37,138 bases of DNA from Candidatus Hydrothermota bacterium (lineage in GTDB: Bacteria; Hydrothermota; Hydrothermia; UBA1063), in NCBI GenBank assembly GCA_003644895.1, contig QNDO01000001.1, positions 1 through 37,138 of the forward strand, in the 5' to 3' direction. Below the pieces are notes generated by a model. That model was not told the origin of the DNA, made no database searches, and saw only the letters and a program-made list of their open reading frames with translations. Made by a program: the position numbers and the translations under genes. This document shows, one piece after another, positions 29,177 through 32,933 of the stretch; the stretch's first letter is position 1, and each line of letters opens with the position of its first letter.

Positions 29177-30044
29177 GCTTGCATCTGAATACGGTTTCTG
29201 TTATGGAGTTGAACGGGCTTTAGAGATAGTGGAGAAGATGAGAAAAAAGGGAGTGGAATTTGATACCCTCGGTCCTATTATTCATAATCCACAGGTAGTT
29301 GCTGAACTTGAGAAGAAAGGAATAAAAGCGGTGGAAAGGATCTATGATACCCCTAAACCTTATATTCTTATTAGAACCCACGGCGTTCCTCCCAATGTGT
29401 ATAAAGAAGCAGAGAAGCTGGGTAAAAAGATTATTGATGCCACCTGTCCTTTTGTTGCCAATGCGCAGAAAATGGCCAGAAAGTTCCAGGATGAGGGATA
29501 TCTTGTTGTAGTTGTGGGTAAACAACATCACCCGGAGGTTAAAGGGATTGTAGGGAACACGAACGGAAAGGCAATTGTAGTGGGTTCAGGAGAGGAAGCG
29601 AAAAAGGTAGATGTGAGGGGGAAAAAAGTAGGAGTAGTAGCACAAACAACCGTGAGACTGGACCTGGTGCAGGAAGTGATAAGTGAGTTCCTCGAAGACG
29701 CAAAAGAGGTGCGGTTCGCAAATACAAGGTGCAATACCACTCAGAAAAGGCAGGATGAAACCCGAGAGATGGCAAAAGAAGTGGATGTGATGGTTATTGT
29801 GGGTGGGAAGAATAGCTCCAATACGCGGAGACTGTATGAGATTGCAGCGAAAAATTGTAAAAGAGCTTATCATATTGAAAAAAAAGATGAATTAAGGAAA
29901 GAATGGTTTTATAATATAGATAAAGTTGGAGTCACAGGAGGGGCATCTACACCTCCTGAGATTGTGAGAGAGGTATATGAGGAGATAAAAAAAATTCTTT
30001 TTAAAGGAGGTACTTATGGAGGAGAGAAAGGTGATGGAGAATAA
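29163..30044 (+). CDS. ispH: 4-hydroxy-3-methylbut-2-enyl diphosphate reductase
   Basis: It has the LytB blocks GFCYGVERA, GPIIHNPQVV, DATCPFV, HPEV.G, AQTT, NT.C..T..RQ, and VVGG.NSSNT.RL. Confidence 0.92.
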   Translation: MPEVKLASEYGFCYGVERALEIVEKMRKKGVEFDTLGPIIHNPQVVAELEKKGIKAVERIYDTPKPYILIRTHGVPPNVYKEAEKLGKKIIDATCPFVANAQKMARKFQDEGYLVVVVGKQHHPEVKGIVGNTNGKAIVVGSGEEAKKVDVRGKKVGVVAQTTVRLDLVQEVISEFLEDAKEVRFANTRCNTTQKRQDETREMAKEVDVMVIVGGKNSSNTRRLYEIAAKNCKRAYHIEKKDELRKEWFYNIDKVGVTGGASTPPEIVREVYEEIKKILFKGGTYGGEKGDGE

Positions 30045-31713
30045 TGAATTTGAATCCATGCTACAGGAGGCATTGAAAATTCCCCGAGAGGGTGAGATAG
30101 TGAAGGGGGTGGTAGTTAAAGTAACACCCCAGGAAGTATATATTGATATAGGATCAAAATCGGAAGGTGTTGCACCAAGGTATGAATTCAAAAACCCTGA
30201 TTTAAAACCCGGTGATGAAGTTTTTGTGTATATAGATACTTTAGATGGCAGAGATGGACGAACCATTGTTTCCAAGCACAAAGCAGATTTCCTCATGGCG
30301 TGGGATAGAATTAAAGATGCCTACCAGAATAATGAGACAGTAGATGCAAAAGTCCTCAGACAGGTGAAGGGGGGGTTAATAGTAGACGTTTTCGGTGTGG
30401 ATGCATTCCTTCCGGGATCTCAACTTGATGTCAAGAAGGTCAAAAGTATTCCTGCTTTTGTGGGAAAGAATATAAAAGTGAAGGTAATAAAATTAAACAA
30501 AGCTAGGAAAAACATAGTAGTATCAAGGAAAGAAGTAATAGAGGAAGAGATAGAAAAGCAGAGAGAGAGATTGCTTGGTATAAAACCTGGAGAGATCCTG
30601 GAGGGTGTTGTCAAAAATATTACAGACTTTGGAGTATTTGTTGATCTTGGAGGAGTAGATGGTCTTATACATATCTCTGATCTCTCTTGGACCAAGATAA
30701 ATCATCCAGATCAGGTTCTCAAAGTGGGGGACAAAGTAAAGGTTAAGGTTCTGGAAGTGGACCCCCAAAATCTTAAACTTTCACTGGGATACAAGCAGCT
30801 ACAGCCTCATCCATGGGAGGCAGTTGCTAAGAAGTACCCCATAGGCTCCATTGTGAAGGGTATAGTGAAGCGTATTGTGGATTATGGAGTTTTTGTAGAA
30901 CTTGAGTCCGGAGTTGAAGGCCTGGTACATATTACTGAGATGAAATGGGGCAAACCGCCGGCTCATCCATCTGAACTGGTAAAAGAGGGAGATAAGGTTA
31001 ACGTGGTGGTTTTGAATGTGGAAGTGGAAAAACAGAGAATTTCACTGGGTATGAAACAGGCGGTTCCGGATCCCTGGTCCCTCATTGAAGAAAAATATCC
31101 TGTGGGTTCTGTGGTTAAGGGGGTTGTTAAAGACTTTGGAAATTACGGAGCTTATATTGAGATTGAAGAGGGAATCGAAGGATTTCTGCACATCGGCGAT
31201 ATTTCATGGACCAAGAGATTCAAGTCGCCTGAAGAGGCTTTAAGAAAAGGTCAAAGATTGAGACTCAAGGTTTTAAACATTGATAAAAGAGATCGCTTTC
31301 TCGAACTGGGATTGAAACAGCTCAGGCCCAGCCCATGGGACGAAATCATTAAAAGGTTGCAGCCTGGTACAGACCTTAAGGCAGAGATCGTGGAAGTAGG
31401 AGAAAGAGGAGTTATTGTGGAGGTAGATAAAGGACTTGATGGTTTCGTACCTGCTTCACAACTTCAGAAGAAAGGTTCTCCAAAGGAAAATTACAAAATT
31501 GGTGAGGAACTTAACCTTAAGGTGCTACGAGTGGAGCCCCAGCGGAAGAGGGTGTTGCTGTCTGAAAGAGAATTTTATCGGGCTGAAGAAAAGGCGGAAA
31601 TTGCCAAATTCAAATCTGAGCCTGCAAAGATAAACCTGGGCGAGATATTAAAAGCAGAGCTCGAAAAATTAGAAGAATTACAAAGCCAGACAGAGGAGGG
31701 GGAGGGGCAATAA
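30016..31713 (+). CDS. rpsA: 30S ribosomal protein S1 (six S1 domains)
   Basis: 565 aa with repeated S1 OB-fold units (G..V.G.V......G..VD.G...G..H.S). An AAAGGAGGT SD lies 5 nt upstream of the ATG at 30016, which overlaps the ispH 3' end by 29 nt. Confidence 0.93.
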   Translation: MEERKVMENNEFESMLQEALKIPREGEIVKGVVVKVTPQEVYIDIGSKSEGVAPRYEFKNPDLKPGDEVFVYIDTLDGRDGRTIVSKHKADFLMAWDRIKDAYQNNETVDAKVLRQVKGGLIVDVFGVDAFLPGSQLDVKKVKSIPAFVGKNIKVKVIKLNKARKNIVVSRKEVIEEEIEKQRERLLGIKPGEILEGVVKNITDFGVFVDLGGVDGLIHISDLSWTKINHPDQVLKVGDKVKVKVLEVDPQNLKLSLGYKQLQPHPWEAVAKKYPIGSIVKGIVKRIVDYGVFVELESGVEGLVHITEMKWGKPPAHPSELVKEGDKVNVVVLNVEVEKQRISLGMKQAVPDPWSLIEEKYPVGSVVKGVVKDFGNYGAYIEIEEGIEGFLHIGDISWTKRFKSPEEALRKGQRLRLKVLNIDKRDRFLELGLKQLRPSPWDEIIKRLQPGTDLKAEIVEVGERGVIVEVDKGLDGFVPASQLQKKGSPKENYKIGEELNLKVLRVEPQRKRVLLSEREFYRAEEKAEIAKFKSEPAKINLGEILKAELEKLEELQSQTEEGEGQ

Positions 31714-31724
31714 GCTCCCCCTCC
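31695..31724 (+). other. Perfect 10-bp G/C-rich hairpin (GGAGGGGGAG-n10-CTCCCCCTCC) spanning the rpsA stop codon
   Basis: Read directly. No U-tract follows, so it is not a canonical intrinsic terminator. It ends 1 nt before the first plausible mtaB codon. Confidence 0.6.
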
Positions 31725-32933
31725 ATATTCATAAAAACCTTTGGCTGCCGTTTAAATCAGTATTATACTGATTTACTACTCAACGCCTTTTATTTAAGCG
31801 GATATTCACAATCTTATGATCCTGAAACTGCAGACTACATTGTAATAAACAGTTGTGTTGTTACGCACAGGGCAGAGAGGGATACAAGGAAGTGGATAAA
31901 TAGAATTAAAAGAATAAATCCAGGGGCTAAGATTATAATTACTGGTTGTTTCCCTTTCTATAAAAAGATTGAGAATGAAAATATCTGGTTCCAAGGTTCT
32001 CCCGGTGAATTAATTGAATATCTAAAGCTTGAGAATCCTCAGTACCTCCGATTTCCTTTGTATCATGTGAGGGCAAATGTGAAGGTTCAAGAGGGGTGCA
32101 ATTTCAGATGTTCTTATTGTATTGTGCCGAAAACTAGAGGAAAGTCCAGATCAAGACCTCAGGGAGAAATCCTACAAGAGATAGAGTCACTGGTTAACAA
32201 TGGTGTTTCAGAAATTGTAATAACAGGGACCCAGACTGGAGAATGGGGGAGGGAATGGAAAAAAAATCTTGCGGATCTTCTTGAGGAGATAATCGCTAGA
32301 TTCCCTAGACTCAGAATCCGACTCTCTTCCATATCCCCCATTCATATAGATGAAGGGATCATTGAATTATTAGAGAAGGGGAAAATTTTGCCCCATTTAC
32401 ATCTTCCCATTCAGTCAGGGTCCCCCCGGATTTTAAGAATAATGCGGAGGCCATACACCCTTGACAAGTATCTGGGGCTTGTGGAGACACTCTTCCAGAA
32501 AGTTCCTGATATTGCCGTGGGTACAGACGTTATCGTCGGTTTTCCGGGGGAAAGTGATGAAGATTTCCAGACCGCCATGGAGACTCTGAAAAAAATACCT
32601 TATGCATACATGCATGTATTTGAGTTCTCACGAAGACCTGGAACCGAGGCCTATCAGATGGAGCCCGTTCCAACACACATTGTAAGGATGAGGAAAGATA
32701 TATTGCTAGAGATTGCCAGAGAAAAGAGAAGAAGATATATTGAAAAATTTCTCAGAAGACAAATAGACGGAGTCGTAGAAAAGAGGTCAGACGGATGGTA
32801 TCATGTAACAACAGGGAATTATCTCAAACTCATTGTGACAGATAAATATAAGCTGAATTGTGGTGGAGTTTATCAGTTTTTACTTAAAAAAATGTATCCG
32901 GATTTCAAAATTGAGGCTATTCCTTCTCACTGA
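31725..32933 (+). CDS. mtaB: MtaB/MiaB-family radical-SAM methylthiotransferase; 5' boundary unresolved (no canonical start codon)
   Basis: One open frame runs from 31620 to 32933. It encodes the N-terminal MTTase domain with its three Cys (FGCRLNQY, INSCVV, ITGCFP), a radical SAM CNFRCSYC motif, and a TRAM-like C-terminus. The first ATG/GTG/TTG in frame is only at 32058. The start given here is the ATA at 31725 and is provisional. Confidence 0.65.
   Translation: MFIKTFGCRLNQYYTDLLLNAFYLSGYSQSYDPETADYIVINSCVVTHRAERDTRKWINRIKRINPGAKIIITGCFPFYKKIENENIWFQGSPGELIEYLKLENPQYLRFPLYHVRANVKVQEGCNFRCSYCIVPKTRGKSRSRPQGEILQEIESLVNNGVSEIVITGTQTGEWGREWKKNLADLLEEIIARFPRLRIRLSSISPIHIDEGIIELLEKGKILPHLHLPIQSGSPRILRIMRRPYTLDKYLGLVETLFQKVPDIAVGTDVIVGFPGESDEDFQTAMETLKKIPYAYMHVFEFSRRPGTEAYQMEPVPTHIVRMRKDILLEIAREKRRRYIEKFLRRQIDGVVEKRSDGWYHVTTGNYLKLIVTDKYKLNCGGVYQFLLKKMYPDFKIEAIPSH

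Follow-up and report, generated by a model that had tools for sequence, protein, structure and literature searches.

In Escherichia coli, initiation at AUA reaches 1-2% of the level at AUG (bioRxiv 10.1101/063800), and behind extended Shine-Dalgarno (SD) sequences, as in Staphylococcus aureus infC, ccpN and citZ, it reaches about 10% (PMC13009471). Translational coupling between adjacent genes is explained by two accepted models, RNA unfolding and termination-reinitiation, and both hairpins that mask the ribosome-binding site (RBS) and -4 overlaps of stop and start codons are standard within it (PMC12548453, PMC6728339). Here we describe the joint between rpsA, encoding ribosomal protein S1, and the methylthiotransferase (MTTase) gene mtaB in a Candidatus Hydrothermota bacterium, an uncultured organism from a hot environment (WOR-3 / Ca. 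Hydrothermae). The sequence analyzed, referred to as the window, is the whole 37,138-nt stretch comprising forward-strand positions 1-37,138 of contig QNDO01000001.1 from the metagenome-assembled genome (MAG) GCA_003644895.1. We found that mtaB is genuinely without a normal start codon. On balance we think that the gene is functional and begins at the near-cognate codon AUA at 31710-31712, through re-initiation coupled to S1 translation from a masked SD. The features of the joint within the window were as follows:

30016..31713, forward strand: rpsA (ribosomal protein S1, 565 aa), stop TAA at 31711-31713, from the open reading frame (ORF) list.
31695..31724, forward strand: hairpin with a 5' arm at 31695-31704, a 10-nt loop at 31705-31714 that holds AUA and UAA, and a 3' arm at 31715-31724.
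31695-31699 and 31701-31705, forward strand: two GGAGG SD motifs in overlapping register in the 3' end of rpsA, found by sequence and invariant in seven assemblies.
31710..31712, forward strand: proposed mtaB initiation codon ATA, in frame, overlapping the rpsA stop as ATAA (-4 overlap) and present in seven of seven assemblies.
31710..32933, forward strand: mtaB coding sequence as proposed (407 aa), stop at 32931-32933, from translation and TIGR01579.
31725..31964, forward strand: N-terminal MTTase (UPF0004) domain with the cluster cysteines FGC, NSC and TGC (PF00919, E 9.6e-20).
31725-31727 and 31731-31733, forward strand: alternative in-frame ATA codons, conserved in seven of seven assemblies and proposed as starts by the initial annotation.
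32058..32060, forward strand: first canonical start (TTG) in the mtaB frame, from the ORF list; gene callers begin there or nearby.
32082..32585, forward strand: radical SAM domain with the motif CNFRCSYC (PF04055, E 8.8e-30).

The mtaB frame was open from 31620 to 32933, preceded by a TGA at 31617-31619, and held no ATG, GTG or TTG ahead of the TTG at 32058, although a complete N-terminal MTTase domain is encoded upstream of that codon. This canonical-start-free stretch of 146 codons is longer than chance would give: among 1765 long ORFs of the genome, the 99th percentile is 116 codons. The PF00919 match spanned aa 1-80 of the product translated from 31725, and the whole product scored above the NCBIfam equivalog cut-off for MtaB (TIGR01579, 369.4 bits vs 357.05), while the MiaB, RimO and MiaB-like-B profiles all remained under their own cut-offs. 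All three auxiliary-cluster cysteines were retained and the radical SAM CX3CX2C motif was present. No TRAM domain (PF01938) was reported at E <= 0.01, the MtaB profile aligned up to residue 374 of 402, and a precomputed PF01938 match was found in only a few relatives. The frame coordinates, the TTG at 32058 as first canonical start and the position of the rpsA TAA, all given in the initial annotation, were confirmed on the sequence, and its claim of a complete N-terminal MTTase domain with three cysteines was borne out by PF00919 and by translation.

To the window we added six further independent assemblies, obtained from JGI, ENA, Logan and NCBI and built with different assemblers, giving seven junction sequences. 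The MtaB protein encoded in these had an identity to that of the window of 98% (L024, NCBI GCA_029932875.1), 96% and 91% (L025 and L026, both JGI metagenome contigs), 90% (L022, ENA), 84% (L021, JGI 3300033149) and 83% (L023, Logan ERR15087768). A canonical start ahead of the MTTase domain was observed in none of the six. All seven assemblies had in common the junction GGAGGGGGAGG[G/A]GCAATAAGCTCCCCCTC[C/A]ATATTCATAAA[A/G]ACC, despite differing elsewhere in about 25% of alignment columns. The 111 codons that precede the first canonical start were free of stops in all seven, and their ratio of non-synonymous to synonymous substitution rates (dN/dS) was 0.07-0.09 at dS 0.4-1.1, the same as in the rest of the gene. 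This agrees with the initial annotation, which had placed the upstream region under coding constraint. A large protein collection yielded four clusters (83-98% identity), in which every call is a truncated protein of 284-358 aa whose only domain is PF04055; the DNA behind these clusters, together with two metagenome contigs, supplied the six added assemblies. The comparison indicates that the start-less state of mtaB is fixed in the genus.

The same alignment points to where the mtaB frame is entered. Upstream of 31688 the substitutions fell in third positions and were synonymous in rpsA, and in the mtaB frame they were non-synonymous or created stops; a TGA at 31641-31643 was present in the mtaB frame of five of the seven sequences. 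The overlap of this frame with the last 31 codons of rpsA, as first described, therefore holds in the window and its nearest kin but not in those five. From 31706 onward, all five changes were synonymous in the mtaB frame. Because the constraint switches frame at the junction, entry lies between about 31688 and 31725. The in-frame codons of this region are AGA GGA GGG GGA GGG GCA ATA AGC TCC CCC TCC ATA TTC ATA, and the sole near-cognates of AUG in frame between 31689 and the FGC motif are the three ATA codons at 31710, 31725 and 31731, each of which was invariant across the seven assemblies. Three in-frame ATT codons further upstream (31647, 31668 and 31677) were considered as starts and rejected, the mtaB frame being unconstrained there.

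The three ATA codons were compared for SD spacing, sequence context and the length of the resulting N-terminus. As a reference for spacing we used 868 confident genes of the MAG, 251 of which had a perfect GGAGG upstream; in these the gap from GGAGG to the start was 4-10 nt with a mode of 6. The ATA at 31710 lies 4 and 10 nt from its two GGAGG motifs, while the gaps for 31725 and 31731 are 19 and 25 nt, respectively. A start-context matrix trained on 747 starts of this genome placed the ATA at 31710 at the 35th percentile among true starts. The ATA codons at 31725 and 31731 scored -8.8 and -8.6, below the 1st percentile, because they are preceded by the C-rich 3' arm of the hairpin. Nineteen mtaB orthologs fetched from relatives had 8-13 residues before the G of FGC, compared with 11 for a product beginning at 31710, 6 from 31725 and 4 from 31731. 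The ATA at 31710, located in the hairpin loop, is also in the same register as a classical ATGA overlap. Operon genes here are habitually joined by -4 overlaps, of which 167 are canonical (130 ATGA, 19 GTGA and 18 TTGA). We placed the ATA at 31710 ahead of the other two because SD spacing, context, N-terminal length and operon architecture all fit. The statement in the initial annotation that no SD is nearby is correct for 31725 and 31731, but does not apply to the overlooked ATA at 31710. The only variable site in the hairpin loop and SD region was 31706 of the window, G in three assemblies and A in four; the S1 tail thereby has Glu instead of Gly, but the change is silent for MtaB and leaves the GGAGG at 31701-31705 intact.

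The hairpin over the rpsA stop has a 10-bp stem in which GGAGGGGGAG (31695-31704) pairs with CTCCCCCTCC (31715-31724), and it ends directly ahead of the ATA at 31725; the earlier description of a 10-bp G/C hairpin in this position was confirmed by sequence and by folding. In isolation it was predicted to fold at -22.7 kcal/mol (z = -3.5), with none of 200 shuffles as stable. The 3' arm resembles an anti-SD, CUCCCCCUCC, and contains CCUCC, the anti-SD sequence, and in the predicted fold the SD is paired while AUA and UAA are in the loop. We scanned the seven-sequence, 2.09-kb alignment in 46-nt windows and observed that 31690-31735 was the most conserved of these, with 2 of 46 positions variable, compared with 20-31% of those in the coding sequence on either side (Fisher p = 4e-4). 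Windows as conserved as this numbered 3 of 2045, all at the rpsA-mtaB junction. On this alignment, constraint at the junction exceeds what coding alone would explain.

Several other accounts of the hairpin were considered. The arm pair is unique in the genome, and an origin from a repeat or mobile element was rejected since the pair occurs nowhere else. A scan for intrinsic (Rho-independent) terminators found none, the stem being followed by AUAUUCAUAAAAACC with no U-tract, and no known RNA family in Rfam matched at E <= 1 over 31400-32000. An outer helix in the minimum free energy fold (31684-31690 with 31740-31746) was also set aside, as its 5' side varies without compensation.

These observations suggest the following mechanism. 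The hairpin stem would pair the GGAGG motifs with the anti-SD-like 3' arm and keep free 30S subunits off. A ribosome at the rpsA stop would cover roughly 31693-31723 and melt the entire hairpin. After release, the ribosomal anti-SD could pair with GGAGG and set the AUA at 31710 in the P site, in the geometry of an ATGA overlap, and a minority of such ribosomes would re-initiate at this codon. The outcome would be a low output of MtaB in proportion to the translation of S1, which would suit a low-copy Fe-S enzyme whose gene follows that of a very abundant protein. We infer each of three elements from the sequence: the use of AUA 31710, the hairpin in vivo, and the dependence on rpsA translation. 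The idea favored in the initial annotation, non-canonical initiation or termination-reinitiation coupled to S1 with melting of the hairpin, gains support from this evidence, with the start at the ATA at 31710. A private initiator tRNA that reads AUA was rejected: none of the 37 tRNAs of the genome (MAG 94.7% complete) was an initiator type with the anticodon UAU or carried a TAT anticodon, and the initiator tRNA was ordinary, having a CAU anticodon, mismatched bases at 1:72 and an anticodon stem with three G:C pairs.

Of 19 relatives examined, 12 have the rpsA-mtaB synteny, among them every one of the seven sister-genus genomes and a genus of the same order, and the S1 encoded upstream of mtaB in these 12 had 67-77% identity to the rpsA product of the window. 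In those relatives mtaB begins at a TTG located three codons before F-[IV]-K and 0-40 nt past the rpsA stop, with no recognizable SD. The initial annotation had proposed that orthologs with a normal start at the equivalent place would explain its observation away; such a start is found in the sister genera (TTG), but within this genus the start-less state is fixed. Since the sister genera have a TTG without an SD there, a weak start beside the S1 stop appears to be ancestral, and the comparison indicates that this genus replaced that TTG by the putative AUA start, the SD and the hairpin. The 10-bp GC hairpin was absent from the sister genera, which belong to the same family and order. Two sister-genus genomes (L003 and L004) have a 5-bp stem over the stop, ACCCG...CGGGT at about 1465-1485, which holds the rpsA stop TAG in its loop and faintly recalls the hairpin of the window; in the remaining five genomes of the sister genus this stem was lacking.

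The possibility that a sequencing or assembly error took away an ATG, GTG or TTG was raised in the initial annotation, and the MAG is indeed fragmented (248 contigs), with one fadD-like gene reading ACG where a near-identical assembly reads ATG. However, one and the same junction is seen in seven independent assemblies from different projects and assemblers, which otherwise differ at about 25% of columns, and the probability of such an error is negligible. A recent loss of the start codon, also suggested at first, is contradicted by the shared junction together with the dN/dS of 0.07-0.09 at dS 0.4-1.1. These same two observations led us to exclude sequencing error, recent loss and a pseudogene. 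A decaying mtaB, or one expressed only as a truncated 291-aa protein from the TTG at 32058 without the auxiliary-cluster domain, would match exactly the product that gene callers report, but it is highly improbable given upstream codons that are stop-free in all seven assemblies and as constrained as the rest of the gene, and given the three retained cysteines in a domain that MTTases require to bind an auxiliary [4Fe-4S] cluster (PMC10702137). The mtaB frame is -1 relative to rpsA and has no stop at the junction in any assembly, tRNA-Gly could slip from one GGG to another and pair again, and the switch of constraint between 31688 and 31706 is compatible with a slip at the G-run. A programmed -1 frameshift in the G-run at 31698-31702 could then yield a low-abundance S1-MtaB fusion with no need of a start. 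Yet no X-XXY-YYZ heptamer is present, as had been noted for this overlap; the A-site shift from GAG to GGA is unable to re-pair; GAG is not a hungry codon; and the second G-run reads GGAG in four of the seven assemblies. The would-be slip site also lies within the 5' arm of the hairpin rather than 5-9 nt upstream of it, and in all 12 relatives of the same synteny the two are separate genes, mtaB with its own start. We consider the frameshift very unlikely.

A start at the AUA at 31725 (or 31731) would have post-termination ribosomes scan 11-17 nt across the 3' arm, once it is open, and begin again with no SD. All seven assemblies retain both codons, and the one at 31725 adjoins the hairpin and in the alignment lies one codon ahead of the conserved F-[IV]-K. 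Some observations weigh against a start at 31710. The TTG starts of the sister genera lie downstream of the rpsA stop without an SD, and downstream re-initiation of this kind therefore looks ancestral. Both SD gaps are extremes of the genomic range, the shortest (4 nt) being found in 21 of 251 genes and the longest (10 nt) in 14 of 251. The four codons at 31713-31724 have one substitution only, which is synonymous, and coding there is not separable from the constraint on the hairpin. The hairpin had no compensatory changes, and the sole change in an arm (L023) breaks the closing pair, leaving a 9-bp stem at -19.3 kcal/mol; its arms are almost invariant and for this reason there was no covariation. 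Finally, enrichment of near-cognate codons behind GGAGG was not significant over all ORF leaders of the genome (p = 0.12), and was clear only in the subset with long leaders. In contrast, the two downstream codons have SD gaps outside the 4-10 nt range, C-rich upstream contexts below the 1st percentile of true starts, and N-termini shorter than those of the 19 orthologs (the G of FGC being preceded by 6 or 4 residues instead of 8-13). A start at 31731 would moreover cut first-strand residues covered by the family profiles, and a terminating ribosome would meet the SD-anchored AUA at 31710 first. The downstream codons put forward in the initial annotation are therefore less likely, and we regard initiation at either one as possible but rather improbable, and retain AUA 31710 as the preferred start of mtaB.

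We also surveyed the genome for ORFs with coding-like sequence preceding the first canonical start, a survey in which detection needs a long start-free stretch. At loci with a GGAGG-spaced in-frame codon and at least 30 coding codons before the canonical start, four of four of these codons were near-cognate (ATA, ACG, ACG, CTG). The additional loci were as follows:

Contig C206 (L027), reverse strand, ACG at about 1523-1525 in forward-strand coordinates: murJ, arranged GGAGG-7 nt-ACG and TAA-AAAGGAGG-7 nt-ACG.
Contig C175 (L029), CTG at 564-566 and GGAGG at 553-557: lptD, arranged GGAGG-6 nt-CTGA.
Contig C54 (L041), reverse strand, position about 2399 of that strand: TPR lipoprotein-like gene (700 aa), ATT 4 nt after TGAGGTGA (GAGGTGA).
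Contig C81 (L028), ACG at about 792-794: fadD-like acyl-CoA ligase gene, arranged GGAGG-6 nt-ACG, with 52 coding codons before the canonical start.

The murJ frame runs for 54 codons with no canonical start, yet these codons encode the conserved N-terminus of MurJ. The ACG and the start-less state were kept in assemblies at 96% (L031) and 89% (L032 and L033) identity, with truncated calls of 444-452 aa. In L032 and L033 the murJ SD spacer (about 663-690) is GGAGGATGTAAAACG, which contains a minimal 'start-stop' (ATG-TAA), out of frame and directly ahead of the in-frame ACG; the MAG has GGAGGGTATAAAACG in the same place, without an ATG. The lptD CTG sits on the TGA stop of an upstream small ORF, a -4 overlap like the ATAA at mtaB, and the signal peptide RLIFVLIILAAG is encoded after the CTG and upstream of the first canonical start. 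All 44 members of the lptD 90% cluster were called without the signal peptide (637 or 645 aa), none of the 44 had a canonical start for the full-length protein, and the leader was identical in L040. In the TPR protein, the hydrophobic segment at the N-terminus is encoded ahead of any canonical start; among the 15 listed of the 39 members in its 90% cluster, 13 were called at 643 aa from the same downstream TTG and two were shorter, at 439 and 418 aa. We conclude that murJ (ACG), lptD (CTGA overlap) and the TPR gene (ATT) also appear to use near-cognate starts. The fadD-like gene was removed from this list, as a near-identical ENA assembly (L030) has ATG at that codon, which points to a polymorphism or an error in the MAG consensus.

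The gene for IF3 (infC) was not found in the MAG and was present in 30 of 30 relatives. As contig C223 (2937 nt) breaks off within thrS and the downstream neighbors open contig C169, this absence is attributable to an assembly gap, in which rpmI and rplT probably also lie, and a loss of IF3 was rejected as a cause of relaxed start selection. A genus-wide relaxed or re-tuned start selection, with AUA, ACG, CUG and AUU behind strong SDs, including stop-start overlaps, used routinely to lower the expression of conserved and even essential genes such as mtaB, murJ, lptD and the TPR gene, seems doubtful to us. If true, the four or five detected cases could stand for a few dozen genes, about 2% of the genome and far more than the approximately 0.1% annotated in model bacteria.

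The practical consequence concerns annotation. Public gene calls for this MtaB and its close relatives are all truncated (284-358 aa), with loss of the auxiliary-cluster domain, and the murJ, lptD and TPR genes of the lineage are likewise truncated, which means that pipelines restricted to ATG, GTG and TTG misdescribe conserved genes of this candidate phylum. At the rpsA-mtaB joint, three known attenuating devices would be stacked, namely a start at a near-cognate codon, its -4 overlap with the stop and a hairpin that masks the SD, stepping expression down from S1, one of the most abundant proteins, to a low-copy Fe-S enzyme on one mRNA. Taken with the sister genera, the TTG without an SD and the putative AUA with a masked SD form a series on how such a joint can evolve.

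The closest counterparts of the proposed mtaB start are infC of E. coli and S. aureus and, in S. aureus, ccpN and citZ (AUA) and cvfC1 (AUU). In these genes, as proposed for mtaB, an AUN codon is the only possible start, it follows a strong GGAGG-type SD and is conserved among relatives, output is attenuated and gene callers misannotate the gene (PMC13009471). They differ from mtaB in that its putative AUA start overlaps the stop of a very highly translated gene and its SD is locked in a predicted hairpin. No autoregulatory logic of the IF3 type is evident at mtaB.

With -4 ATGA coupling (Huber et al. 2019, PMC6728339; PMC10666635; PMC12548453), the joint would share, if AUA 31710 is the start, a stop and start that have bases in common (NTAA/NTGA), an SD inside the upstream gene and an expected dependence of the downstream gene on upstream translation. 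The start itself would be different, AUA (and CUG at lptD) instead of AUG, GUG or UUG, and because it is AUA we would expect a hand-over of a few percent of ribosomes, a step-down compared with the approximately 1:1 of complex subunits. Masked-RBS coupling, as in phage f1 VII/IX, MS2 coat-lysis and E. coli rpmI-rplT (PMC12548453), likewise involves a hairpin that spans the end of the upstream gene and is opened by the terminating ribosome; those systems use canonical starts, while the mtaB structure is a predicted one and lacks support from covariation. Good descriptions already exist of AUN starts that follow strong SDs, of -4 overlaps and of hairpins that mask the RBS, and mtaB is a new example of them; the finding is a modest one because all of the mechanism classes are known. 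What sets the locus apart from these systems is the placement of a putative near-cognate start inside a stop/start overlap within the loop of a hairpin, an overlap logic that recurs at lptD (CTGA).

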